Below are positions 40,255 through 55,429 of a stretch of DNA of 64,000 nucleotides, one piece after another. The stretch is from an uncultured Planctomycetia bacterium. Lineage in GTDB: Bacteria; Omnitrophota; Gorgyraeia; 2-02-FULL-51-18. A program made the translations under genes and the position numbers. Under the pieces are notes generated by a model, which saw only the letters and a program-made list of their open reading frames with translations, searched no databases and was not told the origin of the DNA. Where the stretch lies: the NCBI GenBank assembly GCA_964642015.1, contig CAZXLF010000001.1, positions 181,541 to 245,540 of the forward strand. Reading direction: 5' to 3'. The first letter of the stretch is position 1. Every line of letters begins with the position of its first letter.

Positions 40255-41363
40255 TTTCTCCGAAGGAATTCGTCAAAGCCTGCCAATCCAGAGGTTTTTT
40301 ATGTTTTACCGGAGTGCCTTGCTCTTTTTTTCAGGCTGCGATCAATTACGTGATCGATGAGCCGTCACTGGACTACACGATCGTTCCGAACGAAGGTTCC
40401 GCTTTGGCATTGGCTTCTGGCGCTTACTTAGCGGGCAAACCGACCGTATTGATGATACAGAATTCCGGATTTGGAAATCTCGTCAATCCTCTCACATCTT
40501 TGAACATGATCTACAAGATTCCGGTGCTGATCTTTATCAGCGGTCGGGCGTATGGTATTCCTGATGAACCGCAGCATGAGGTTATCGGCAAAACGATGGG
40601 ACCGGTCCTTAAAGCGCTTGGTGTGAAGCATCAGGATATGCCGGATGATTTTTCTTCGTTCGAGGATGCGCTTGATGAAGCAGTGTCTTGGATGAAAAAA
40701 GAGAAACAGCCTTTTATATTTTTTGTGAGAAAGGGCAGCATTGACGATTATTCTCCGGCAAAGCGAAATGGATCCAAATATCCTCTAAAAAGGATCGAGG
40801 CGATCGATATCATATCCAAACATTTAAAAGGCGATGAGTTTGTGATCGCGACGACCGGAAAACCATCACGGGAACTTTTCAGCATTTCTGACCGTAGTAA
40901 AAATTTCTATATGCAGGGTTCGATGGGCCATGCGGCTTCGATAGGCCTGGGTGTTGCGCTTAATTCTCCGAAAAGCAAAGTGATAGTGTTAGATGGTGAT
41001 GGGGCGATCCTGATGCATATGGGAATACTCTCCTCAGTTGGACATTATAAGCCGAAGAATTTTTGTCATATTGTGCTTGATAATGAATCTTATGAGACAA
41101 CCGGCGATCAAGACACCACCTCCTCGACAACTGACCTGAGAGCAGCCGCAAAAGCTTGCGGTTATGCGATCGTTGAAGAAGCCGAGACAGAAAACAGTCT
41201 GAAGATCAAGCTTAAAAGAGTTTTGCAAGCCAAAGGGCCTGCGTTCCTACGCGTTAAGATCAATCGTCAGCCCACTTTAAATATCCCCCGCATTTCGTCC
41301 AAATACACTTCCGAGAATATCGCGGATAACTTCAAAGCGGACCTTGTCCGTTATTCCTCCTGA
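40251..41363 (+). CDS. ppd: phosphonopyruvate decarboxylase (TPP-dependent)
   Basis: 370 aa. N-terminal FLCFTGVPCSF, a TPP-binding GDGA motif (VLDGDGAILMHMG), and an ATGA overlap with pepM. Confidence 0.8.
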   Translation: MISPKEFVKACQSRGFLCFTGVPCSFFQAAINYVIDEPSLDYTIVPNEGSALALASGAYLAGKPTVLMIQNSGFGNLVNPLTSLNMIYKIPVLIFISGRAYGIPDEPQHEVIGKTMGPVLKALGVKHQDMPDDFSSFEDALDEAVSWMKKEKQPFIFFVRKGSIDDYSPAKRNGSKYPLKRIEAIDIISKHLKGDEFVIATTGKPSRELFSISDRSKNFYMQGSMGHAASIGLGVALNSPKSKVIVLDGDGAILMHMGILSSVGHYKPKNFCHIVLDNESYETTGDQDTTSSTTDLRAAAKACGYAIVEEAETENSLKIKLKRVLQAKGPAFLRVKINRQPTLNIPRISSKYTSENIADNFKADLVRYSS

Positions 41364-42145: not shown

Positions 42146-42376
42146 ATGCTGTCTCTTGTATTATCCAGCGCGGTGTTGGGGATAGACGCTTATCCTGTGG
42201 AGATCGAAGTGGATATTTCCAATGGCCTGCCTAAGTTCAATATCGTCGGCCTACCCGACGCAGCCTGCAGCGAAAGCGCAGATCGGGTAAGCGCCGCAAT
42301 AAAGAACAGCGGTTTTCCTCTTCCAGTGAAAAGAATCACCGTGAATCTTGCTCCGGCAGATCTTAAGAAGGAAGGA
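42146..42376 (+). pseudogene. comM: 5' fragment (codons 1-77) of comM/yifB (Mg-chelatase-like AAA+ ATPase), truncated by an insertion
   Basis: The ComM N-terminal Lon-like domain (..[17 protein letters not shown]) is conserved up to codon 77. Beyond that the frame continues as unrelated low-complexity sequence to a stop at 42502. The matching 3' part resumes at 54098. Confidence 0.75.
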
Positions 42377-42502
42377 GCGAGTAGTACAAAGCTCTCCTCG
42401 CCAACAGCACCCACCAAAATCTTGTTCTATCGTACCTGTCTTACGAAAGGAAGGGGCATATTTTACAAGGGCGTCCTTCCGTTCACACTGTCGCCATCCT
42501 GA

Positions 42503-44023
42503 TCAGAAACTGAAGTCCATCTCGAAAACGCCGTCGTTGAATACCCGCAAGACTTTCACGACAGCATTGACCATGTCCCGTTTTTGCTCATCGTTTGCGT
42601 ACTCAAAATTCTTCTCAAATTCACGAGCAAACAATTTGGCCTTATTTACGTCCGTTCTTTTTCTCATAACGTCTTCGATCTCAGCTTCAAGTTCCATAAT
42701 TTCTTGCTCAATACGAAGGCAGTCATCATCGAACTTCTTGATGCGAGCTGTCATTTCCTTGCCGTCAATTTCGCCTTCTTCAAATGATTGCCGCCATTTT
42801 TCCTTGTAACTCTCAACTTTTGACAGGTGTATTTTTCGATCTGCGATCTTCTTCTTCAAATCGTTGGTTTCTTTCAATGAAATCAGACTCATTTTTTCTT
42901 CCAGATACCCTGGTTGACTGACAATCAGCTTCAGATGCTCAATGACCGTAACAAGGTTATTCTGATCAAATTTATCATGACGATGACATTTCTTATGAAC
43001 GCACGCTTTCACGCCTTCCTTACGTCTTCGATTGCATGAATAATACCGCAGGTGGACAGGGGCGTGATGAGCAACCATCGCGGATTCACAGTGTCCGCAG
43101 ATAGCGCGATCTCTGAACAAGAAACCAGGAGACCGAACTGACCAGGCCAGCTTGTGGCCTTGATAATTCGTTTTCAGGAGAACCTGAACGCGGTTGAATG
43201 TTTCTATGTCGATTATGACGTCATGTGTTTGTCTGTCGTAAAGTTTCTTGTGCCGCTTTATGTACATTCTGCCCGTATACAACTGATTCTTGAGGATACG
43301 TCCAATTTGGCGTCGATCCAGTTTGATCGGTGGTTCAATACCTCTTCGTGCAAATTCTTTTTTTGTCTCCAACACCACACGTGAGATGCTTTTGAACTGA
43401 AGGTATGTCTTGAAGATAAAAACAACGATCTCAGCCGCTTCTGGAACAGCAACCAACATATGAGCAACCAATTTGAATCCGAAGGGAGGAGTTCCGCCAA
43501 TCCAGTTGCCATCCCGTTCAACCTTCTTCATTCGCCCGCCCAACAAACGATCTCTTCTTGTAACGTTGTCAAATTCCGCAAATATCGCAAGAAGTGCCAT
43601 GATCATCCGACCGATATGCGATCCTGTATCAAACGGCTCCGTGATGGAGCGGACAACCACACCGTACTGATCAAATTCTTCAATGAGCTTTACAAAATCT
43701 CGTAAACTTCGAGCAAGGCGGTCAATTTTCCATACGACGACCACGGAAACGCGACCCGCTTTGACCTGATGTCTGATATTGGTAAGACCAGGGCGGTCTG
43801 TATTCGTTCCTGTGCTTGCATCGAAAAAAATATCGGTCTCTTTCAATTCTCCATAATCTTGAGACGGCCACCATTTCTGAGCACTCTCTATTTGAACTTC
43901 GCGCGAAACCTTGTCTTCGTTGTCCTGAGGTAATGTGCTTACGCGCGGGTAGAACACGGCTCGCTTGAGAGCGTTCTTTGTACTTTGATTTCCTGCTATC
44001 TGCGGTGTCGCTTGTTTGAACAT
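42503..44023 (-). CDS. large serine recombinase (resolvase catalytic domain + recombinase domain + zinc-ribbon/coiled-coil)
   Basis: N-terminal AVFYPRVSTLPQ with the catalytic Ser context, plus a ...VKAGRVSVVVVWKIDRLARS motif. 506 aa with a C-terminal Cys-rich and coiled-coil region. Confidence 0.85.
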   Translation of the reverse strand: MFKQATPQIAGNQSTKNALKRAVFYPRVSTLPQDNEDKVSREVQIESAQKWWPSQDYGELKETDIFFDASTGTNTDRPGLTNIRHQVKAGRVSVVVVWKIDRLARSLRDFVKLIEEFDQYGVVVRSITEPFDTGSHIGRMIMALLAIFAEFDNVTRRDRLLGGRMKKVERDGNWIGGTPPFGFKLVAHMLVAVPEAAEIVVFIFKTYLQFKSISRVVLETKKEFARRGIEPPIKLDRRQIGRILKNQLYTGRMYIKRHKKLYDRQTHDVIIDIETFNRVQVLLKTNYQGHKLAWSVRSPGFLFRDRAICGHCESAMVAHHAPVHLRYYSCNRRRKEGVKACVHKKCHRHDKFDQNNLVTVIEHLKLIVSQPGYLEEKMSLISLKETNDLKKKIADRKIHLSKVESYKEKWRQSFEEGEIDGKEMTARIKKFDDDCLRIEQEIMELEAEIEDVMRKRTDVNKAKLFAREFEKNFEYANDEQKRDMVNAVVKVLRVFNDGVFEMDFSF

Positions 44024-44229
44024 TTTGGCAGTTCTGTCATTTCGTATTTTCTTTTTCGAGACGCTGTTGGATCACAGCAAGATACATCTGCCAGAAACGA
44101 TTCTCATTCATTGAAGTATCGTTGCCGTTTTTTTGATCCTGTTCTTCGCTGTTCTTTTCATTGTTTTCCATTATGGATACCACCACTTCTGATTCAATGA
44201 CTATCAAATGCTGAAAGGGTTTCGCGTTT

Positions 44230-45084
44230 TCATTTTTCTACTCGTCGATCCTTGCCTTTTACAGAACGAACGTCGCACATACCGACAATTCGACTGCTGA
44301 CGCGTTGGTCATATTGCTCGTCTATTGCCTCAAGTGGGAAGTTGGAAGTGATGATCGTCTGGCGTTCCCATGCCTCGCGTTCGTTGATCAAAAAATAAAT
44401 GCTCTGTTTGACGAAGTCAGTGGCTTTTTCCGTTCCGAGATCATCAATGACCAAATGCGGTACTTCGGCGCACCGTTTCAGGATACGGTAAGCACTTTCT
44501 TCCGATCCGTCCCGCCACGCCTCTTGAAGTTGCATTACAAATGCGGCAAATCCAATAAACCGCCACTGTTTATCGACTGGTTCAACCCTGATCCCGTCTT
44601 GTTCTGCCCAGAAGCGTAGCCATTCCCTGATTACCAGACCCGAAGCGACGCTTTTTCCTGCTCCTGTGCTTCCGTGGAGAAAAAGGCCGCGTGATCCTGG
44701 CCTTCCATATTGAAGTACCCAATCGCTTCCATCGAGCGGCTTGTCATACCTGACAAATGCTTTCGGTACACCGTACCCAGCAAGAAGGGAGGGAATCATC
44801 AAGAGGCGACCCTCTTTTGCTTTTGTAACTGCTTTCTTTTCGCAGTTTTTACACAAACCCTGCTCTGATGGCGGCGGTTCTTGCCGTTTTGCACAATCGC
44901 TACAATTCCACGGTCTTCGTGATCGCTCGAAATTTTGAGTTTCGATCCGCCTGATCGTGTCCTCCAGGTTTCCCTCCACGCTTTCCTCCGCTTGTAAGTT
45001 TGTTGATCTGAGACCAGAAGACTCCGATCGTATAACCTGCTTTTTTGACAAACTCGTCGTCTGAGCCAAAAAATCCAACGGCAT
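44230..45084 (-). CDS. DnaC/IstB-like AAA+ ATPase (helicase-loader-like) with N-terminal Cys4 zinc finger
   Basis: Walker A (GSTGAGKS), Walker B (LVIDDLGTE), and CSDC...CKNC. The 5' 185 bp overlap the upstream initiator ORF, so the true start is probably internal. Confidence 0.6.
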   Translation of the reverse strand: MPLDFLAQTTSLSKKQVIRSESSGLRSTNLQAEESVEGNLEDTIRRIETQNFERSRRPWNCSDCAKRQEPPPSEQGLCKNCEKKAVTKAKEGRLLMIPSLLAGYGVPKAFVRYDKPLDGSDWVLQYGRPGSRGLFLHGSTGAGKSVASGLVIREWLRFWAEQDGIRVEPVDKQWRFIGFAAFVMQLQEAWRDGSEESAYRILKRCAEVPHLVIDDLGTEKATDFVKQSIYFLINEREAWERQTIITSNFPLEAIDEQYDQRVSSRIVGMCDVRSVKGKDRRVEK

Positions 45085-45691
45085 ATTTCTTCAGGTTTTC
45101 TACGTCGAAGGTTCCGATCATCCGCTTGACGGTCGATGCGTCCTTTCCAGTCACCAGATATTTTTGACCGAACCGCGATTGGTACTCTTGAAACCACCAG
45201 TCTATAAAGTCTTTTATTCTTGAATCAGAAGTTGAAATTGAAGTTGAAGGTGAAGATGAATATGAAGGGGGCTTCTCGGAAGTGGGGAGAGTGTTATCCT
45301 TATGCTTATCCTGAAGGTTATCCCTGTGCTTATCCATCAACACGGGATTACCGCCTGTCATGCCGTATTCTTTCTTTCGCTGGCGCATCTCTTCGTCGCG
45401 TAGCATCCGACGGCTGAATAACACGCCCTGTTCGTCTCTTGAGAAGACCTTTTTATTCTCAAGTCCTCTCAAAAGACTCTCACATTGTTTTGCGGATGTT
45501 CCAACCATTCTGGCAAGTTCTCGGAGGGCGGGAGGATGGTCGCCGACAAGCAAATACCCCCTGCGCGGAGACTCGAACATGATCAGTATGATCTCCAGGC
45601 ATAAACCCCTCTCAGCAAGAGAGCAGGCGCGAATGGCTGGGTCTTTCAGCCAGTCTCCTGGGTAAAACTGAAACGCTGGTAACTTGCTCAT
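44900..45691 (-). CDS. putative replication initiation protein (DUF1376-like N-terminus, DnaD-like C-terminal region)
   Basis: N-terminal FQFYPGDWLKD motif, as in the phage/plasmid DUF1376 family. Positioned directly upstream of the DnaC-like gene. Confidence 0.45.
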   Translation of the reverse strand: MSKLPAFQFYPGDWLKDPAIRACSLAERGLCLEIILIMFESPRRGYLLVGDHPPALRELARMVGTSAKQCESLLRGLENKKVFSRDEQGVLFSRRMLRDEEMRQRKKEYGMTGGNPVLMDKHRDNLQDKHKDNTLPTSEKPPSYSSSPSTSISTSDSRIKDFIDWWFQEYQSRFGQKYLVTGKDASTVKRMIGTFDVENLKKYAVGFFGSDDEFVKKAGYTIGVFWSQINKLTSGGKRGGKPGGHDQADRNSKFRAITKTVEL

Positions 45692-46019
45692 TTGAACGCC
45701 CCTTATTTCAAAGCCAACCTTATCGAATAACCACCCAGATCATAGCACATGGTTTTCCGTAACTCGTTTACCTGTAACACCTTATAACAAGGTTTTGCAG
45801 GGTATAACGCCATGTTATTTTTGACTTTTTGTAACCTTCAGTATTTGAACAAGTTACGAAAATCGCGGTTTGTCGAATTACGAGGATTTGGGAGAGAAAA
45901 TTGTTTTTTTGTGCCTCTTGACATGATTTGAAAAACTGCTTTCAGGCGTGAAAAAAAGAGAGGTTTGAATAATTCGAAAAAGGGCTTCGGGGTAAGGGAA
46001 ATTTATCGAGAAGTTTGTT

Positions 46020-46646
46020 TCACAACAAAGGCAGGGCTTTTCGGATGGTCTGGTAAGATACGCGGCCGCTTCTTGGGGCATCCTTGTTATACCTTGTTTC
46101 AAGTTCTCTCAACGGAAGATGTCCGCTGGAAGAAAGGAGAGAGCGGAGTTTTTCAAGATCAACTGGCTTTCGTGGTCGCCCGCCGTGATATTGATGTTTT
46201 GCTTTCTTGATCTGGATTCCCTCGCGCACCCGAACACCGAGCATTTTTGAATAACTGTTCGCCATGTAAGCAAAGACCATCATCAGGATTTCCCACATTG
46301 GCTGATCGGAATCAATGGATTCTTTGAGACTGACAAATCGTGCGCCGTATGTATCGGTGATCCTGTGCAGGTCTGAGACAATCTGTGTTGGCTTCATGCG
46401 TGAAAACCGATCAAGCATATAGACAATGAGAACATTGAACTCTTTCAGGCGTATTCGTTCAAGCATCGATTCAAATATCGGACGCTTTTTGATACGGTAA
46501 GCTGACTCGTACTCAGAGAAAACTTCGTACGCCCAGCCCTGCGCCTGGCAGTATTTCATACAAGCATCAATCTGGCTTTGAACGTCCTGCTTTTCTTCGT
46601 TTGTGGAGCATCGGCAGTAAACAGCGACGTTTATCTTTGAGACCAT
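46020..46646 (-). CDS. small serine recombinase (resolvase/invertase family, N-terminal catalytic domain + C-terminal HTH)
   Basis: VAVYCRCSTNEEKQD...Q with the catalytic Ser, and an LIVYMLDRFSR motif. 208 aa. Confidence 0.85.
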   Translation of the reverse strand: MVSKINVAVYCRCSTNEEKQDVQSQIDACMKYCQAQGWAYEVFSEYESAYRIKKRPIFESMLERIRLKEFNVLIVYMLDRFSRMKPTQIVSDLHRITDTYGARFVSLKESIDSDQPMWEILMMVFAYMANSYSKMLGVRVREGIQIKKAKHQYHGGRPRKPVDLEKLRSLLSSSGHLPLRELETRYNKDAPRSGRVSYQTIRKALPLL

Positions 46647-47812
46647 CTCAATGCCTCCGCTTGATCAAGCTCTCTCAATTTGAATTTTTTGAACATCAAG
46701 TCTTCGATAATTTGCTGAATCTCTGGCCTGATCCGTTCCCACAGTCGCTTATCGTATGGCTGAATCCAGTCGGCGATGATCTCGCCGCCGAGAAGGGCTG
46801 ATTCACCGTGGAACCAGACACTTTGAAGTATCTTTTGGGGTATTTCCCTGTGCCGTGCCAGAAAGAATCGCTCCGCAATGCGGCCAATATGGGTGTGAAA
46901 GTCAATACAGAAGGGGTCTATTTCAGCCAACGGAAGCCGCTGGACGGCGTTTTCATCAATAGAGGGAAGAGTGATACCCTTCAAAGCGTAATCGCCTCGT
47001 TTGTATCTTATTGCGGCTGATAAAAGCAAAGCCGAATCGCTTTCCCAGAAAGTACCACCCACCACGCGATCAAGGCATTGTTTTACAACCGCGTCCTGAT
47101 CGTGTTGGAAAATCTCGTATATCTCCGCGTATCGCTTGTCCTTTGCCAACTTGAAAAGTTGAACCATCACGGCGACGTACTCTTGTTTATCGAGCAGATG
47201 ATATCTCAGCCATGTGGTGTCGGGTACGGTCGTATTTACCTGTGAAGCAAGAAGCCCTTCGGTCAGTTGCCAGCCGAGAGAACAAAGAGTTTTGTCTTTT
47301 GGTGCTTCTGCGATCACCGCCGTTACCTGCAAGAACTCTTTGAGACTCATGCCGTCATGGAAGAATTTCAGAACTTCTACCGCAGAGAAGGCATCCTCAA
47401 CGGCGATTATCTTGAGCCGTCTGATTGCTTGATCCTTACCGAGCAAAAATAGCGTCTTCGCCGCACGCACCGCCTTCTCGACCATCCCGCGCCTGATGTA
47501 TTTTTGAAGAGCCGATTTGTAAAGCCCGACCTTGCCTTGATAATCAAGATAAAATTCGCCAGGCAACTCACCGCTCATAACTCCGACTTCAAGCCAACCA
47601 ATCAATGTGCGCCGATTTTTCGATAACTTTTCAAGTTTGAGCAGGTCTTTCAGGTCTTCCGCTGTTACGCTCTCAATTTTGTCCATCTTGCGAAGCTCTT
47701 CTTGGATTACGGCGATGCTTTTTTTGAGTAGACCTTCCATGTCGTTGATTGTCATCAGACAGTCCTCGTGCGTATATTTGTTTTGATAATAAAAGTGTAT
47801 ACCGCTGATCAT
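46631..47812 (-). CDS. hypothetical protein with a helical domain resembling the MgsA/RarA C-terminal domain, but no ATPase motifs
   Basis: The segment YKSALQKYIRRGMVEKAVRAAKTLFLLGKDQAIRRLKIIAVEDAFS parallels the RarA C-terminal signature (SALQKSIRGSD.DAALYWLARM..GEDP.FIARRL.I.ASEDIG). No Walker A/B anywhere in the 393 aa. Confidence 0.35.
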   Translation of the reverse strand: MISGIHFYYQNKYTHEDCLMTINDMEGLLKKSIAVIQEELRKMDKIESVTAEDLKDLLKLEKLSKNRRTLIGWLEVGVMSGELPGEFYLDYQGKVGLYKSALQKYIRRGMVEKAVRAAKTLFLLGKDQAIRRLKIIAVEDAFSAVEVLKFFHDGMSLKEFLQVTAVIAEAPKDKTLCSLGWQLTEGLLASQVNTTVPDTTWLRYHLLDKQEYVAVMVQLFKLAKDKRYAEIYEIFQHDQDAVVKQCLDRVVGGTFWESDSALLLSAAIRYKRGDYALKGITLPSIDENAVQRLPLAEIDPFCIDFHTHIGRIAERFFLARHREIPQKILQSVWFHGESALLGGEIIADWIQPYDKRLWERIRPEIQQIIEDLMFKKFKLRELDQAEALRWSQR

Positions 47813-47846
47813 CTGATGGAAGGACTGACGGAAAAAATCGGCGAGG

Positions 47847-48359
47847 TTATTTCTTGTTTTCGTACGAAACGAGCACTCTCGGTTTCGCTATGATTTGCTC
47901 TGGGGCAACTTTTGCTATCGGAGGAATTGATTTTGAAACTTCGGCCTTTGGTTCATCGACACTCAACCCGACAGACAATCCGCTGAGTGTTTTCGGACTT
48001 GGATTCAGCGTTGTTCCGCCGCTTGATCGATTGGTTACAAAAGTCTGATGTGTTTCAGTGTCGCCAAGTGGTTTCGCGGAATATTCGATAATCCGTGTTC
48101 CGTCTGGCTTGGTATGGGCGTATGCGGTGTACGTTCCTGGCCGATTATCAATCGGAGCTTGCCAATCCCCATTCACAGGATCAGAAATGCCGTTGGCGAA
48201 GTGTCCGCTTTGGAATTTTTCAACTTGTTGGTTGAACCATGTCTGCGTCTTTTCATCCAGCTTTGGTAAATCGTCTGCCAGTACCAATGAAGACTTGAGA
48301 AGAATGATTGATGCGAAAAGTATTACGCGAAATCGGCTCATGGCAACTCCTTCCATCAA
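47847..48359 (-). CDS. hypothetical secreted protein (signal peptide, Pro/Thr/Ser-rich)
   Basis: N-terminal hydrophobic signal (RFRVILFASIILLKSSLVLA). No family recognised. The start may be the internal ATG (MSRF). Confidence 0.35.
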   Translation of the reverse strand: MMEGVAMSRFRVILFASIILLKSSLVLADDLPKLDEKTQTWFNQQVEKFQSGHFANGISDPVNGDWQAPIDNRPGTYTAYAHTKPDGTRIIEYSAKPLGDTETHQTFVTNRSSGGTTLNPSPKTLSGLSVGLSVDEPKAEVSKSIPPIAKVAPEQIIAKPRVLVSYENKK

Positions 48360-48416
48360 TGTGATGGTTTGATAATAAAAGTATACCGTGAGCTGTTCTG
48401 ACTGCCAGAGGAGGGT

Positions 48417-48821
48417 TTACTTTTTCAGGAAAAACATTACGACGAGCATTATCGCTATGAGCGAAATATAAAAAACGGAGAGCGTCTTTGAAAAAATGGC
48501 GCTCACCCAGCATGATGAATCTTTATTGGCGACGGCTGAAGCATCCATTGAGAAATCGATCTCTTCGATATTTTTTGTCCTCACAACATCGTGCAAATCT
48601 CGGAACATTCTTTCTTGGGAGAGATAAAAGCCATCGAGAATCCAGAAAACGAACACCGCTGCGTATGCGATGATAATGTATTTGTCATTCGCGTCTTTTG
48701 AGGCCAGAGCAAAAAGGGCAGAGACAAGGGTTATGCTCCAACCCTTGATCAAAAAAGAATTACCTGCCATCCTGCTGATTGTTTGCTGAATAAAATCCAG
48801 GTGTTTGAGCTTTCTTTCCAT
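48417..48821 (-). CDS. small 3-TM membrane protein, translationally coupled to the upstream TIR-like gene (candidate membrane effector)
   Basis: 134 aa. Hydrophobic helices at ~28-42, 52-71 and 112-131. Its start codon overlaps the stop of the TIR-like ORF by 1 nt. Confidence 0.5.
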   Translation of the reverse strand: MERKLKHLDFIQQTISRMAGNSFLIKGWSITLVSALFALASKDANDKYIIIAYAAVFVFWILDGFYLSQERMFRDLHDVVRTKNIEEIDFSMDASAVANKDSSCWVSAIFSKTLSVFYISLIAIMLVVMFFLKK

Positions 48822-49309
48822 TATCGCCCTGCCTGTTGAGCGGCTCTTTCGATCCAGTCCGCAAAATAAACATTTCCAGAGTTATTTACCCAGTCATACG
48901 TGGAATAAATTTGTGAAAGCGATACCTGAACGCCATTCCTTGGCATTTGCCAGTTATCAAAAGGATTGCGACCTTGAACATCAGTGCGGCTCCAACGATC
49001 CCTCAAATTGTGAATATGAACTCCAAGAAGCCCATTTCCGCGAACCACGCTTCGTTGAATTTCGTATCCGACGTAAGAGCGTTGGCTCGTTTCTGCGCCA
49101 ATAAGAACAACGGTAACAGAAGTATTTTCCAATTCCCTGTCAATCCAGCGTTTGACAGCATCTTCGCCCTGTCTTTCTACGGCTTCAAAAGCGGCGGCGT
49201 CGTGAAAGCCCGCCGTCTCACGATCCCTTGTAACCCAGGAATTTCGTATCTGGTTTACCCGCCAAACATCTCGTTCATAATGAAAACTGAAAAATACGCG
49301 TCTTGCCAT
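48821..49309 (-). CDS. TIR-like domain protein (ThsB-like, DUF1863/PF08937 family)
   Basis: N-terminal RRVFFSFHYERDVWRVNQIRNSWVT, a central NTSVTVVLIGAETSQRSYVGYEI, a GNGLLGVHIHNL block, and NPFDNW and VYFADW segments. This layout is characteristic of prokaryotic TIR-like (Thoeris ThsB-type) proteins. 162 aa. Confidence 0.65.
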   Translation of the reverse strand: MARRVFFSFHYERDVWRVNQIRNSWVTRDRETAGFHDAAAFEAVERQGEDAVKRWIDRELENTSVTVVLIGAETSQRSYVGYEIQRSVVRGNGLLGVHIHNLRDRWSRTDVQGRNPFDNWQMPRNGVQVSLSQIYSTYDWVNNSGNVYFADWIERAAQQAGR

Positions 49310-49318
49310 AATGTTTCC

Positions 49319-51841
49319 TCAAGCCAAAATCTCGTTGATCTTTTTTTGCCATTCGTCTTCCGATATAATCTCGAAGGAAATTTTCCGTTCGGGCAAAGTG
49401 AAGCCCAATTCAACCCAGCTTCGTTCTTCTGCCAATTTGTTGCATAGAGAAAATACGTCCTGTTTGTATTGAGTGTCCTCGCTACCTTTCAAATGCAATC
49501 CCTTTGTCTCAACAACATACACTTTGTCGAAATCTTTATGACCTTTGGCGTTTGTTTCCGAAAAAATAAAGTCTGGATAAATGCGGTGTTTTCTCCAACC
49601 CTGGATTGCGTAATCCTGACGCGATAAATTTCTATACCACCAGAATAATCGCTCTTGTTCTTCGAGATACCAGGCAACGGATTTTTCGGTCTCATTGAAA
49701 TCATCTTCGGGAACAATTTCAAATAGACTCTTCTCAAGCGCACTGCCATCTTTCCGAGTCAACCGCCTGCTGCTTTTTTTTATTCGCAATTTGGATGGAA
49801 GGCGGTAGCCCTGATCATCTTTCAGCATAAGAAAACGAATTTGTTTTTTTGTTACCAGGTCGGCGAAAACTTGCTGGGAGAGACGATCTTTTTCTTGATC
49901 GGCGATTTTTCTCATTTCCTCAATGATAAATACCAAATTGTTTGCAACCGTTTTGAGGTCATTCTTTTTGATCAACGCTTCAAGTGTTTCCTGTGCTATT
50001 TCATAAGCGATCCAGGGATTTTGAATAATATCGACCAAGTGCCGCGTAACAAAAACAGTGTCAATCGCAAGGCCACCTTCTTTCAAACGCAGAACACCAT
50101 GACTTTCGATGACTTGTTTCTCATCATCACTCAGTCCAACGGCAATTTCTGTGTCCTTTTCTTCAGATGAAGATAATTTGAGTGAACGAGATGGCTTGAA
50201 GTCAGCATCACTCCATTTGATTTGGCTTACAATATCAGTCTCATAACTCAATTTTCTCCAAACCTTACTATCTTCGATTACGAAAACTGGAAGGTAAATC
50301 TGTCCTGCAAATTTTTTGAATTTCTCCCGCAATTCGACAACGCGCTCGCCCTCGGTAGCTTCGCCGCCTTCCATTGAACCATCAGACAATATGCGCCCTG
50401 CGAGATCTCCCAAACCCTCTTGCTCAAAACCATCTTTGACACTTTCAAGAAGTTGCTTCCCGCGCTGTTGGAAACAAAAAACATAACTTTCATCCAGAGC
50501 TTGAATTTTGGTCTTTCGCGCGAAGGGTTGTCGCAAAATTCTGCCAACGAGCTGTGTCATATTATTTTCAGAGGTGGGATTTGTAAGGACAGTCAAAACA
50601 TACGCAAATGAGCAATCCCAACCTTCCTGTAACGCCTGTTTGGTAATGATATATCGGATGTCGCAGGTGGGGGAGAAGAGATCAATGCCTTCAATGTCGT
50701 CTTTTTCGCTACTTTTTATTGCGATTGCTGATTCAGAAATGCCACAAGTTTTTATCAGATATTCTTTGGCGTCTTCCGCGTGAATAAAGCGTCCCCCGCG
50801 TTGATCTTTTCCAGTGCGTTCAACCTGAATCAAACAGATGGGGCGAATATATTCACCCATGTTCGCTTCATATTCTTTCGCCGCCTGTTCGAGAAGATTA
50901 CGTCTCTCAACGCTTGAAAGTAGCGTGTCTTTCCAGTCAACACTCGCCTTGTTGATTACGTGCAAATCGAGCTTGATCATATCTTCTCGTGCAAGCTCCA
51001 CACCTTTTATATCAACAAGAACGTTGCTCCCTCGATTCGGTGTAGCGGAAAGTTCGAGAATCAGGCACGGGTTGAATCCGCGAAGTGTTTTTTGTGCAGT
51101 TTCGCTATATGCCTTGTGTCCCTCATCAAGAATAATGACGGGAGATAGACTGCGTAGCGTGTTGCCCAGCGACGTTTTGATTTGCCTGCCCCAAAACCCT
51201 CCTTCCTTTCCGAATACATCCAAATTGGGAAACTTTTCAAGCAATTTTCGATGGCCTTCCGTATCGTCTTCAGAAGGAAAGAACGCCTGAAATCCGCCGC
51301 TATCTTTGAAAACCTTGAGCGTTTCTTTATTCTGTCTGGATGCCGAAGGAAGCATGAGCATGAGGACAACCAAGTTTTGTGCGACATCAAGAGGAGTAAA
51401 ATGATCCGCTTTCTCAAAGATCAATGTCTGCCCACCGCTTGCGACGTCAAGATGCTGACGGTAAGGATGTTCGCGGTCGCGCAGATGTTGAATTGTCTGA
51501 CGATAAATTTGTGTTGTTGGAACCACCCAAAGAATCAGGCCAGTTCGTTTTTTACGATAATTCGTATTGATGAGGTCTATGCTTTTGACGGCAAGGAGCG
51601 TTTTGCCGCCACCCGTGGGGATTTTCAGGCAGAAATTGGGGAGGTATTCACCAAGACCATTTTTTTTGGACTGGTAAGGAATGTTCCTGACTTTTTCCCA
51701 TGCTTTTCCCGTCCAATCTGGGACAGCATCAAGACCAGCGATTTTTGCAATCTCATCACTCTTTGTTCGCCAATCATATAACGCAGTCAGGTACTTTTTT
51801 ATTTGTTGAAGAGTTTTCTGCTGATATTCTTTGAGTTCCAT
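49319..51841 (-). CDS. res: Type III restriction enzyme Res subunit (SF2 helicase + C-terminal PD-(D/E)XK endonuclease)
   Basis: Walker A (PTGGGKTLLA), DEGH box (VIILDEGHKA), SAT motif (ELSATP), and C-terminal YPDFIF...VVETKG. 840 aa, directly downstream of the mod gene. Confidence 0.85.
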   Translation of the reverse strand: MELKEYQQKTLQQIKKYLTALYDWRTKSDEIAKIAGLDAVPDWTGKAWEKVRNIPYQSKKNGLGEYLPNFCLKIPTGGGKTLLAVKSIDLINTNYRKKRTGLILWVVPTTQIYRQTIQHLRDREHPYRQHLDVASGGQTLIFEKADHFTPLDVAQNLVVLMLMLPSASRQNKETLKVFKDSGGFQAFFPSEDDTEGHRKLLEKFPNLDVFGKEGGFWGRQIKTSLGNTLRSLSPVIILDEGHKAYSETAQKTLRGFNPCLILELSATPNRGSNVLVDIKGVELAREDMIKLDLHVINKASVDWKDTLLSSVERRNLLEQAAKEYEANMGEYIRPICLIQVERTGKDQRGGRFIHAEDAKEYLIKTCGISESAIAIKSSEKDDIEGIDLFSPTCDIRYIITKQALQEGWDCSFAYVLTVLTNPTSENNMTQLVGRILRQPFARKTKIQALDESYVFCFQQRGKQLLESVKDGFEQEGLGDLAGRILSDGSMEGGEATEGERVVELREKFKKFAGQIYLPVFVIEDSKVWRKLSYETDIVSQIKWSDADFKPSRSLKLSSSEEKDTEIAVGLSDDEKQVIESHGVLRLKEGGLAIDTVFVTRHLVDIIQNPWIAYEIAQETLEALIKKNDLKTVANNLVFIIEEMRKIADQEKDRLSQQVFADLVTKKQIRFLMLKDDQGYRLPSKLRIKKSSRRLTRKDGSALEKSLFEIVPEDDFNETEKSVAWYLEEQERLFWWYRNLSRQDYAIQGWRKHRIYPDFIFSETNAKGHKDFDKVYVVETKGLHLKGSEDTQYKQDVFSLCNKLAEERSWVELGFTLPERKISFEIISEDEWQKKINEILA

Positions 51842-51848
51842 TCAATAA

Positions 51849-53531
51849 TCAGTCTGCAAATTTATAAATTTCAAAAGGCAGTTGCGCAAAGTCGATTCGT
51901 AATTCATCCAACATTTCTTGATCAAGGAATTTTGTCGGAGCAAAAACCAAACGACGCTTACCATTATATTTTCCGAGTTTTTTTGCACGATCAAGAGTGA
52001 GGGCCGTGTGCTTCAATGCTTCAATGTCGGGTGTATAAAAAAGGTAGACTTCATGGAATTTTGACTCGCCGACGAATCCCTTTTTCTCATCAACTTCTTT
52101 TTCATCAAATTCTTCACCAGTAGCAGTGTAAAAAAGATAACGCGCAAGTTCTCCGTATGAAGGAAGGTGTTTCCCATCAAGGATTCGTTCCAATTCAATA
52201 GCCCGTCCGAGTTCAAAATAACCAAACGTTTCGCCGAATTTCAAAGCAAGTTTTTGATCTTTATCCGAGCCATTTTTTATAACTCTTTTGACTCTTTCAG
52301 CGGTGATTGAGTCCGCATAATTTTCACACTCAACAAGAATAAACTTCCGCTTCCCTCCGTCAGAACGATTCAGTTCGATCACTGCTTGACCAGTTGTTCC
52401 CGAACCTGCAAACGAATCCAGAACAATCGAATTTTTATCACCTGACAGCAAGACGGCGTGTTTTACCAGATCAACGGGTTTTGGATAATCGAACACTGTT
52501 TTGCCAAACAAATCTTTTATTTGATCTCGTCCCGTTTCATTATTGAACTCAGACCCTTCCCATATAGAAGGAAATAAACGTCCCTTTGAATCGCCATCAG
52601 CATCTTCCGCAAAATCTTTTTGACAGACCTCCCACTCTTCTTCTTGAGTTTCGCGTCTCTTGACTATTTTTGCGATAAGCAAATTACCTTCTTTTTCTAT
52701 CTTTCCTTTGCTCCATCTCCATACGCTATCACTCCCATCAGAAAGTTTTGGAATAACTTTGACAAACCCCTTTTGATTTTCGAGATACACTTTTCCCGTT
52801 TTAGGATCAACAAATAGAGGAAAATGTAAATTTGGTCGGTCTTGTCTACGCGATAGCGCGCCTCTTTTCCTCAAACCCAAAAGTCGGTATCGTTTCCCAT
52901 TTTCAGTCTCAGAGTATTCCGCGAGCTGTTCATCAGTGAGATCGAGACGGCCTGCCTTGAATTTTGAAATATCCTTTACGTACGCAACGAGATACTCATG
53001 TTCCACCGCCAATTCTGTGCCAAGCCTTCTGCCGCGCGGGTTATTCTGAATTACGATTACGCCAAAACGATTTGACTCGTTGAAAATTTCATCACAAAGA
53101 CACAATAAGTTTTTCAATTCGTTGTCATCGATTGAAATAAAAATAATCCCGCTGTCGGAGAGCAGTTCTCTCAAAATTTTCAATCTTGGCATCATCATGC
53201 AGAGCCATTTGTCGTGGCGAGTCAGATCTTCTCGATCAACCACCTTGCCGAGCCATTCTTGCATCATTGGCGAGTTGACATTATCGTTATAAGCCCATTT
53301 TTCATTCCCAGTGTTATACGGCGGATCGATATAAATGCACTTTACTTTCCCAGCGTATGTGGGAAGAAGAGCTTTCAAGGCCTTGAGATTATCGCCGTGA
53401 ATTACGAGATTATCAGTAAGGCGGACTTTATCGGTGAGACTTTTGGATTTCTGCGGAATCAGTTCGTGATATTTGACCGAAAGATGATAATTCTGAACAA
53501 ACGGTTTTCCCTTGAAATTCAAATTTGCCAT
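51849..53531 (-). CDS. mod: Type III R-M system Mod subunit (N6-adenine DNA methyltransferase)
   Basis: DPPY motif IV (IYIDPPYNTGNE) and motif I (SFAGSGTTGQAV). 560 aa. Confidence 0.9.
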   Translation of the reverse strand: MANLNFKGKPFVQNYHLSVKYHELIPQKSKSLTDKVRLTDNLVIHGDNLKALKALLPTYAGKVKCIYIDPPYNTGNEKWAYNDNVNSPMMQEWLGKVVDREDLTRHDKWLCMMMPRLKILRELLSDSGIIFISIDDNELKNLLCLCDEIFNESNRFGVIVIQNNPRGRRLGTELAVEHEYLVAYVKDISKFKAGRLDLTDEQLAEYSETENGKRYRLLGLRKRGALSRRQDRPNLHFPLFVDPKTGKVYLENQKGFVKVIPKLSDGSDSVWRWSKGKIEKEGNLLIAKIVKRRETQEEEWEVCQKDFAEDADGDSKGRLFPSIWEGSEFNNETGRDQIKDLFGKTVFDYPKPVDLVKHAVLLSGDKNSIVLDSFAGSGTTGQAVIELNRSDGGKRKFILVECENYADSITAERVKRVIKNGSDKDQKLALKFGETFGYFELGRAIELERILDGKHLPSYGELARYLFYTATGEEFDEKEVDEKKGFVGESKFHEVYLFYTPDIEALKHTALTLDRAKKLGKYNGKRRLVFAPTKFLDQEMLDELRIDFAQLPFEIYKFAD

Positions 53532-54097
53532 AAGTTTCCATGTAATGGTTTCGTAATGCTATTTCGGCCATTATACCCACGCTTCGTCGTTATATCAACG
53601 AAAGTCAGAATTGACGAAACGTGCTTATTTTTTGGAAACAAGATAAAGAGTTGTTCTGAGCTGTCTGAAATTTGAGGCGAAAAGGTCAGCAACGAAACCT
53701 TTTTCCCGAAAAGGGGAAGTGGGGGGGCGCAAGGCCAAAAATGACCTGCCAATCGGCTATATGCGCTATCAAGGGTCTGCCTGTGATGAGTAAATAACAG
53801 ATGCGTCAATCAGCCGCGTTTTATTATCACCGCCAGACATTGTTTTCGATTTCCATCAGAACCAACTTTTCAACCATAATCAATACGCACCAGAGATTTC
53901 CGCCCGAATCGCCAAACCCTTGTCAGTGACAACGCCTTCTCTTGGAAAACGCTCAAATTCCTGACCTTTTGCTGACAACCTTGATCTGCTGACAACCTGC
54001 GTATTTGGTCTTTTGAAAGCGTACCTTGCCTTTCAAAAAGATGAACCGATTTCTGCAAAGACTCTCCTTTATATATCCTTGTCCTTTCGTGCCAGTC

Positions 54098-55429
54098 TTG
54101 AAAAAGGAGGGCTCTTCGTTCGACCTTGCGATAGCCATCGGGATTTTAGTTGCCAATGAGACTATTACACAAGAACAAGTCGAGAATATTATTTTTTGCG
54201 GCGAACTTTCATTGGATGGCAGACTTCGAGGAGTATCAGGGGTCTTGCCGCGGGCAGTATGGCTTTTATCAAACGAGCCGAAGAAGCGATTCGTGATACC
54301 ATATGATAACGCCAAGGAAGCCTTATGCGCCAGAGGTCTGGATGTCAATCCCGCTAAAAATCTTTCTCAAGTGATCCATTTTCTTAAAGGCGAAGGGGAA
54401 TTATCTCTTAAAACGGATGATCGACCGGAAAATTCAAACGGTAAATTAAAAAGACCTAGAAGATATTTTGATTTCTCTGATATTAAAGGGCAGTGGCATG
54501 CCAAACGCGGTCTTGAGATCGCGGCCGCAGGACAGCACAACGTCCTTTTAATAGGCCCGCCCGGCGCCGGAAAGACAATGTTGGCAAAGCGAATGCCGAC
54601 TATCTTATCGTCGATCACTTTTGATGAAGCGATAGAGACAACAAAGATCCACAGTGTTGCAGGCCTTCTTTTAGAAAAGGCATCACTGATCGAATCAAGG
54701 CCTTTTCGCGATCCGCATCACACGATCTCAAATGCTGCGTTAATAGGCGGCGGTTCATATCCCAAACCAGGAGAAGTCAGCCTTGCTCATAATGGAGTTT
54801 TATTTTTAGATGAATTAGCTGAGTTCAGGCGGGATGTTCTGGAAGTTCTGCGTCAGCCGCTTGAAGAAGGCAAGATCACAATTTCCAGAGCTTCTTCGTC
54901 TTTGACGCTACCGGCACGTTTTATGCTGGTTGCTGCAATGAACCCTTGTCCGTGCGGTTACTTTACGGACCCAAAAAAAGAATGTCATTGCACGCCTATT
55001 CAGATCAAAAACTATATGTCTAAGATCTCAGGGCCCTTGCTCGACCGTATAGACATTCAGCTTGAAGTTCCTTGTCTAAAGGTTGATGAAATAACTTCGA
55101 AAGCTGCGGGAGAGCCATCCTCAGCGATCAGGGAACGCGTTGAAGAAGCGCGCAGCAGACAGCGCAGCCGCTATGCGTCGGAAAAAATATCATCGAATTC
55201 AGAGCTCGAACCTAAGCAAGTTGAAAGGTATTGCGAAGTCTCAAAAGAAGGGGAAGCGCTTCTTAAAATGGCCATCCAGGAACTTGGGTTTTCGGCACGT
55301 GCTTATCACAAAGCATTGAAAGTTGCTCGCACTATAGCTGATCTAGAAGGATCAGAATGCATTCACCAAACGCATATCACAGAATCTATCCATTACCGTG
55401 CGTTGGATCGTAACGCATGGTTTAAATAA
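54098..55429 (+). pseudogene. comM: 3' portion of comM/yifB (AAA+ Mg-chelatase-like ATPase, codons ~73 to end), separated from its 5' part by the island
   Basis: LKKEGSSFDLAIAIGIL continues the ComM N-domain exactly where the 5' fragment diverges. Walker A (GPPGAGKTMLAKR), Walker B (VLFLDELAEF), and the C-terminal Mg-chelatase ChlI-like domain. An upstream in-frame ATG at 54026 may allow expression of a truncated product. Confidence 0.75.

Follow-up and report, generated by a model that had tools for sequence, protein, structure and literature searches.

Seven new Thoeris types were recently validated from a scan of defense islands for TIR systems (Yirmiya et al., bioRxiv 2025-12-03, doi 10.64898/2025.12.03.692087). 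One of them, type V, consists of the TIR protein ThsB and the effector ThsF, which has three membrane-spanning helices and was labeled DUF2270; it was validated with systems from Bacillus thuringiensis DAR 81934 and Bacillus sp. 1NLA3E (doi 10.64898/2025.12.03.692087). The B. thuringiensis system protects B. subtilis against phage. Upon infection, type V ThsB alone produces 3'cADPR, and externally supplied 3'cADPR is toxic only to cells containing the type V system, while the second validated system made 3'cADPR and yet was not rendered toxic by it. Type V defense is inhibited by the Tad1 sponge. In the AF3 models of the preprint, ThsF is predicted to assemble into a channel-like ring of seven identical subunits, in which positively charged pockets lie between the protomers. 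In total, 470 type V systems were counted (1.2% of genomes) with an enrichment in Bacteroidota, and the same TIR clusters were seen to pair with several effectors (doi 10.64898/2025.12.03.692087). A literature search for "ThsF" and "type V Thoeris" retrieved only this preprint. Besides, PADLOC-DB v2.0.0 (2023) holds a two-component entry, PDC-M50, for which no paper was found in a search for this name; entries of the PDC-x series are unpublished computational candidates (PMC11811056).

Here, a two-gene locus of an uncultured bacterium is compared with these systems. The window, i.e. the whole stretch of DNA that was analyzed, comprises 64,000 nucleotides. A first-pass annotation, made from the sequence of the window, had proposed that a ThsB-like TIR protein and a small membrane protein constitute an undescribed two-gene defense module. 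The homology data presented below indicate, with a probability of about 0.88, that the two genes constitute a type V Thoeris anti-phage system (thsB-thsF) and are accompanied by a Type III restriction-modification (R-M) system on an island integrated into comM.

Organization of the locus

The ORFs of 162 and 134 amino acids (aa), their overlap by one nucleotide and the TIR motifs reported for the larger one (MARRVFFSFHYERDVWRVNQIRNSWVT; NTSVTVVLIGAETSQRSYVGYEI) were all found again in the ORF list and the raw sequence (Table 1). The TAA stop codon of thsB (48823-48821) and the ATG of thsF (48821-48819) have base 48821 in common, and this TAATG overlap is consistent with translational coupling of the two genes. 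The position of the pair 9 bp behind a Type III res gene also proved correct, as judged from the sequence and from Pfam and PADLOC matches. The res ORF (840 aa) terminates with a TGA at 49321-49319, exactly nine bases (49310-49318) before the thsB start codon. A Shine-Dalgarno-like motif, GAGGA, straddles the res stop codon upstream of thsB. Though adjacent, res is a neighboring defense gene and lies outside Thoeris proper. A scan for -35/-10 elements detected no strong promoter match between res and thsB. The best sigma-70-like match (11 of 12) is located upstream of mod (53598..53570, minus strand), and apart from this region only 9-of-12 matches were obtained. Since a strong promoter match is missing in the spacer, it may be that thsB and thsF are transcribed by read-through from mod-res, starting at the mod promoter.

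Table 1. Features of the thsB-thsF locus and the surrounding island (positions refer to the window)
Feature	Position	Strand	Description
Mobile island	42503..54025	.	roughly 11.5 kb, interrupting comM/yifB; carries R-M and Thoeris genes
Large serine recombinase	42503..44023		left island edge/junction
Resolvase	46020..46646		small
393-aa gene	46631-47812	-	island gene downstream of thsF; no match in Pfam, NCBIfam, PADLOC, PHROGs
170-aa gene	47847-48359	-	island gene directly downstream of thsF; no match in Pfam, NCBIfam, PADLOC, PHROGs
thsF	48417..48821	-	134-aa membrane protein with three helices; predicted effector of type V Thoeris, PADLOC PDC-M50A
TAATG stop/start overlap of thsB and thsF	48819..48823	-	read from the sequence
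thsB	48821..49309	-	162-aa ORF, ThsB-type TIR; by homology predicted infection sensor and signal synthase
res-thsB spacer with GAGGA motif	49310..49323	-	Shine-Dalgarno-like; read from the sequence
res	49319..51841	-	Type III restriction endonuclease; Pfam ResIII 4.9e-18, PADLOC REase_III 2.7e-188
mod	51849..53531	-	Type III methyltransferase; Pfam N6_N4_Mtase 7e-34, PADLOC MTase_III 1.8e-138

The mobile island, too, is real. Its integration split comM, which encodes a Mg-chelatase-like AAA+ protein: one fragment (42146..42502) covers positions 1-60 of the ChlI profile, the other one (54026..55429) positions 52-121 and the AAA+ core, and the large serine recombinase gene is situated at the junction. 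A search of the island ends for direct repeats (10 bp or longer) was negative, which fits a serine recombinase, as expected for such enzymes. The island additionally encodes a DnaC-like loader and a replisome-organizer-like protein. The product of the 170-aa gene possesses an N-terminal hydrophobic, signal-like segment, and the arrangement of the 393-aa and 170-aa genes after thsF recurs in a metagenome contig (L090). Just outside the island (38563-41363, plus strand), a gene for a PEP phosphomutase fused to a nucleotidyltransferase domain is followed by one for a TPP-dependent (phosphonopyruvate decarboxylase-like) enzyme, a pair for phosphonate biosynthesis.

The TIR protein

The thsB product matched the Pfam family ThsB_TIR (PF08937, 2.7e-25) as well as the PADLOC models ThsB (PDLC00431, 1e-64) and PDC-M50B (5e-61). 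A phmmer search of PDB sequences related it to the solved ThsB structures 6LHY and 9B7D (E 3.6e-33). In the alignment to these structures, Y82-E83-I84 of the window protein falls on "RYEI" of BcThsB, the motif with the catalytic Glu; the codon of E83 is located at 49061-49063. The proposed identity as a ThsB-type TIR with a catalytic Glu was thus borne out, and according to the alignment the protein is a BcThsB-like TIR enzyme that has kept this residue. BcThsB is the signal synthase of type I Thoeris and makes 3'cADPR, for which reason 3'cADPR is the best guess for the product of the window ThsB.

In Table S1 of the preprint, the TIRs most similar to that of the window (FSFHYERDVWR...) carry the label "DUF2270 - Type V", and one TIR with this label has 51% identity with the window ThsB in an alignment of 150 residues. 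BLASTP revealed no similarity between the window protein and the validated ThsB of B. thuringiensis. By its sequence, the BcThsB-like subfamily of the window ThsB is different from both subfamilies validated for type V. Since the TIR subfamily differs in this way, the product of a ThsB of this kind when paired with ThsF had to be inferred.

The membrane protein

Three hydrophobic segments were detected in the 134-aa protein (at roughly residues 22-41, 47-67 and 106-131). Its AF2 model, which is confident (pLDDT 87), is all-helical with long helices comprising residues 2-43, 47-82 and 105-133, so that its description as a small 3-helix membrane protein is supported. SIR2, SLOG or Macro domains, which had already been considered absent, did not give a Pfam match even at E values up to 10. 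Membership in type I or type II, whose effectors contain SIR2-SLOG or Macro domains, was rejected on this ground. Pfam and NCBIfam scans assigned the protein to no significant family; DUF3278 (E 0.007) was below the cut-off. With the AF2 model as query, Foldseek detected no PDB structure at E <= 0.001. A SLATT-like fold, for which the first-pass annotation had suggested looking, was found neither in the Pfam scan nor among PDB folds, and the SLATT effector class (type VII Thoeris/CBASS) was dismissed. On this evidence, ThsF resembles no solved structure and has no recognizable domain for binding nucleotides.

The name DUF2270 was of little help. Pfam PF10028 (DUF2270) scored 7 bits (E 5.6) with the window ThsF, at a cut-off of 25, and the best relative reached E 0.19. 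There is no Pfam match on record for the validated B. thuringiensis ThsF either. Because the validated protein fails PF10028 equally, DUF2270 is a loose label and not a usable criterion. The 134-aa protein matched PADLOC PDC-M50A (5.5e-51), and the ThsF family is matched by phrog_19896 ("unknown function", 1.5e-44).

Relationship to the validated type V system

The published TIR of the validated B. thuringiensis DAR 81934 system was recovered by sequence search at 100% identity (P0121). The nearest plasmid homologs of this ThsB (B. cereus, Priestia F20) adjoin SIR2 or Macro genes and could not supply a ThsF; therefore, the validated protein's own contig was used. Directly downstream of the validated thsB there is a 141-aa gene with three hydrophobic stretches, while the 271-aa gene upstream is hydrophilic. 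The 141-aa gene was taken as ThsF as it has the next IMG gene number, like the effector of the paper, which assumes that IMG numbers follow the contig order; the locus has the same orientation as in its record. On this contig (L088:4454-6759), the validated type V system adjoins an OLD-TOPRIM ATPase and a UvrD-helicase, a Gabija-like pair. The genes next to thsB and thsF in defense islands accordingly vary.

The B. thuringiensis ThsF and the 134-aa protein of the window are 45% identical over 132 residues, i.e. over their full length (E 3e-39), and have four PDC-M50A HMMs in common. An alignment including the window ThsF, the validated ThsF and distant members from plasmids and archaea revealed nine invariant residues (R17, S22, F23, K26, W28, T31, F59, D63 and R74). 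It is because of this homology, the same PDC-M50A HMMs and the invariant residues that the window pair is attributed to type V Thoeris. The possibility that it represents a new, undescribed two-gene defense system, distinct from every Thoeris type, would agree with the lack of a Pfam or NCBIfam family for the membrane protein and with the designation of all database copies as "hypothetical protein". However, both genes had already been modeled as PDC-M50 in PADLOC, close relatives of the window TIR stand under type V in the preprint (doi 10.64898/2025.12.03.692087), and the membrane protein resembles the validated ThsF over its full length. The PDC-M50 matches together with the 45% identity and the common HMMs refute such a reading, the probability of which is negligible. 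The claim of novelty has consequently failed.

Distribution and gene neighborhoods of ThsF

The family of the membrane protein is large, with more than 1000 clusters at 90% identity, and its degree of conservation is unusual. Its members from Bacteroidota, Proteobacteria, Cyanobacteria, Patescibacteria, Planctomycetota and archaea, including a Methanoperedens plasmid, are 50-65% identical. A chance pair of ORFs can be ruled out because of this conservation between bacteria and archaea. Among about 185,000 species genomes, at least 565 encode a homolog of ThsF. Homologs were also present on 138 plasmid records, and many of these are conjugative plasmids of Klebsiella and Escherichia. Wherever a database feature was annotated under the match, it was called "hypothetical protein".

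For the neighborhood analysis, 80 ThsF loci were sampled from genomes of many phyla. Beside the membrane gene, a homolog of the window-type TIR was present in 45 loci. The neighbors in the remaining loci cluster into three more families of about 265, 225 and 185 aa, all of which gave strong matches to PADLOC ThsB and Pfam TIR models. When all TIR types were used as queries and a distance limit of 1.5 kb was applied, 70 of the 80 loci contained at least one TIR gene close to ThsF, and two or three TIR genes were found in 28. Pfam alone disclosed a TIR in two more loci, one of them a Pkinase-FHA-TIR fusion, which raises the number to at least 72 of 80. The first-pass annotation had named the co-occurrence of the two families as a check of the proposed module, and in this respect its expectation was confirmed. 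The partners belong to at least four TIR subfamilies, all PADLOC ThsB. Thus, a conserved effector is combined with variable and often multiple TIR sensors, which is the signature of Thoeris, and the membrane protein occupies the effector slot. In 34 loci the TIR genes all followed ThsF, in 13 they all preceded it, and in 23 ThsF was flanked by TIR genes on both sides. Both orders occur, and the one in the window (TIR, then TM protein) is the minority order.

The data on gene neighbors are also relevant to the question of whether the pair works on its own. Accessory subunits of the adjacent Type III R-M system, or an addiction module for this system or the island, might well be encoded at a distance of 9 bp behind res and without a strong promoter match of their own. 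On the other hand, ThsF-TIR pairs were present in about 72 of 80 unrelated loci that have no fixed neighbor, the validated B. thuringiensis pair adjoins OLD/UvrD-type genes instead and the plasmid copies are accompanied by other genes again. As the neighbors vary between loci, an assignment of the pair to the R-M system was rejected; a role other than autonomous defense is very improbable.

Some of the loci deviate from the common pattern. In a MAG of Candidatus Acidoferrum (L030:3046-5922), the ThsF homolog is directly preceded by a gene for a 958-aa protein kinase-FHA-TIR fusion; this may be a variant of type V whose TIR sensor is coupled to a kinase/FHA part. Another locus (L043:5439-6137) harbors a gene for a SLOG-family protein (Pfam LD_cluster3, 2.9e-17) next to ThsF, with no TIR detected within 1.5 kb; a homolog of this SLOG-family protein is encoded upstream of ThsF in a further locus (L024:5149-5922). 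On a plasmid of Streptomyces angustmyceticus (L086; 726-2471, 2468-2890 and 2905-3345), the ThsF homolog overlaps a gene for a 581-aa protein without a Pfam match and is convergent with a gene for a HIT-domain protein. HIT hydrolases are the effector of type XI Thoeris, and the plasmid locus may therefore be a mixed or atypical arrangement.

Discussion

The pairing of the two genes has been catalogued (PDC-M50, 2023) and described experimentally (type V Thoeris, 2025), and by its sequence the locus of the window is a further member. Conceptually, nothing is new: a system catalogued in 2023 and validated in 2025 was independently re-derived. What has been gained is a locus that can be annotated with confidence as type V Thoeris plus Type III R-M on an island targeting comM. 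Moreover, ThsF emerges as a very widespread effector, found in archaea, in Patescibacteria and on plasmids, yet public records refer to it as a hypothetical protein.

By analogy to the homologs, phage infection would induce ThsB to convert NAD+ to an isomer of cyclic ADP-ribose, most likely 3'cADPR. This signal would bind to positively charged cytoplasmic pockets between the protomers of a ring-shaped ThsF homo-oligomer. The pocket is probably formed by the amphipathic helix at the N-terminus and the helix extension that follows TM2, in which the invariant residues R17, K26 and R74 are located. Signal-bound ThsF would then compromise the membrane, resulting in growth stop or death before phage release (abortive infection). 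The ThsF oligomer and the pore mechanism are model-based, as they derive from AF3 predictions of the preprint. That a TIR-made nucleotide might gate a membrane-disrupting effector had already been suggested for the window pair, and this proposal agrees with the experiments on homologs, in which 3'cADPR triggers ThsF toxicity.

It is conceivable that the architecture is type V-like but that ThsF is gated by a different TIR product such as 2'cADPR, canonical cADPR, His-ADPR or an unknown molecule. BcThsB-like TIRs, to which the computed homology links the window protein, are the source of 3'cADPR in type I Thoeris. Moreover, the ThsF of the window and the 3'cADPR-responsive one of B. thuringiensis are highly conserved, including the charged invariant residues. 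Both points argue against another signal. In its favor are the diverging TIR subfamily, the validated type V variant that was not triggered by 3'cADPR and the combination of the same TIR clusters with several effectors (doi 10.64898/2025.12.03.692087). Taken together, another signal appears rather unlikely, albeit to be kept in mind. The same holds for the broader idea that a BcThsB-like TIR together with ThsF signals by a molecule other than 3'cADPR, or that the ligand of ThsF is sensed by a novel pocket between the protomers of the membrane ring. If this somewhat doubtful idea were true, the structure of the ThsF pocket would establish a new class of ligand-gated pores in bacteria.

Many bacterial TIR proteins are NADase effectors, and the first-pass annotation had considered as an alternative that the TIR acts directly as a NADase. 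In that case, NAD+ would be depleted without a diffusible signal and the membrane protein would serve as sensor, anchor or regulator. The closest solved relative of the window TIR, BcThsB, is known as a signal synthase, though, and a strongly conserved partner beside highly variable TIRs fits an effector with its sensors and not the reverse. The limitations section of the preprint allows for NADase activity in types that were not verified, but 3'cADPR production by type V ThsB alone upon infection, and the toxicity of added 3'cADPR only in the presence of the system, speak against it for this type (doi 10.64898/2025.12.03.692087). An NAD+-depleting TIR is hence not favored by the published data on homologs and is quite improbable. 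Signaling from ThsB to ThsF is the preferred explanation.

Compared to the type V system of B. thuringiensis, the window locus has the same two-gene operon with the order thsB-thsF, and its ThsF shares the three TM helices, 45% of the residues and the invariant positions. Unlike the tested systems, it encodes a ThsB of another TIR subfamily (BcThsB-like, 162 aa). Further differences from the type V references are the 1-nt gene overlap, the uncultured host and the position directly behind a Type III R-M system on a comM island. With PDC-M50, the locus has in common that both component HMMs match adjacent genes end to end. PDC-M50 is a computational candidate without a mechanism, however, and its most common order is TM protein, then TIR, contrary to the order in the window.

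Type I Thoeris of B. cereus MSX-D12 (PDB 6LHY) has a homologous ThsB with the catalytic Glu retained, and by homology the signal is likely the same, 3'cADPR. By contrast, the type I effector is the SIR2-SLOG NADase ThsA, while the predicted effector of the window is a 134-aa membrane protein without a SLOG sensor domain. Type II (ThsB with a 2TM-Macro effector, now ThsC) and type VII (SLATT effector ThsH) resemble the window pair in that a TIR signal acts on a membrane-spanning effector. Their signals are different, namely His-ADPR and canonical cADPR, and ThsF, unlike their effectors, did not match a Macro or SLATT domain in Pfam.
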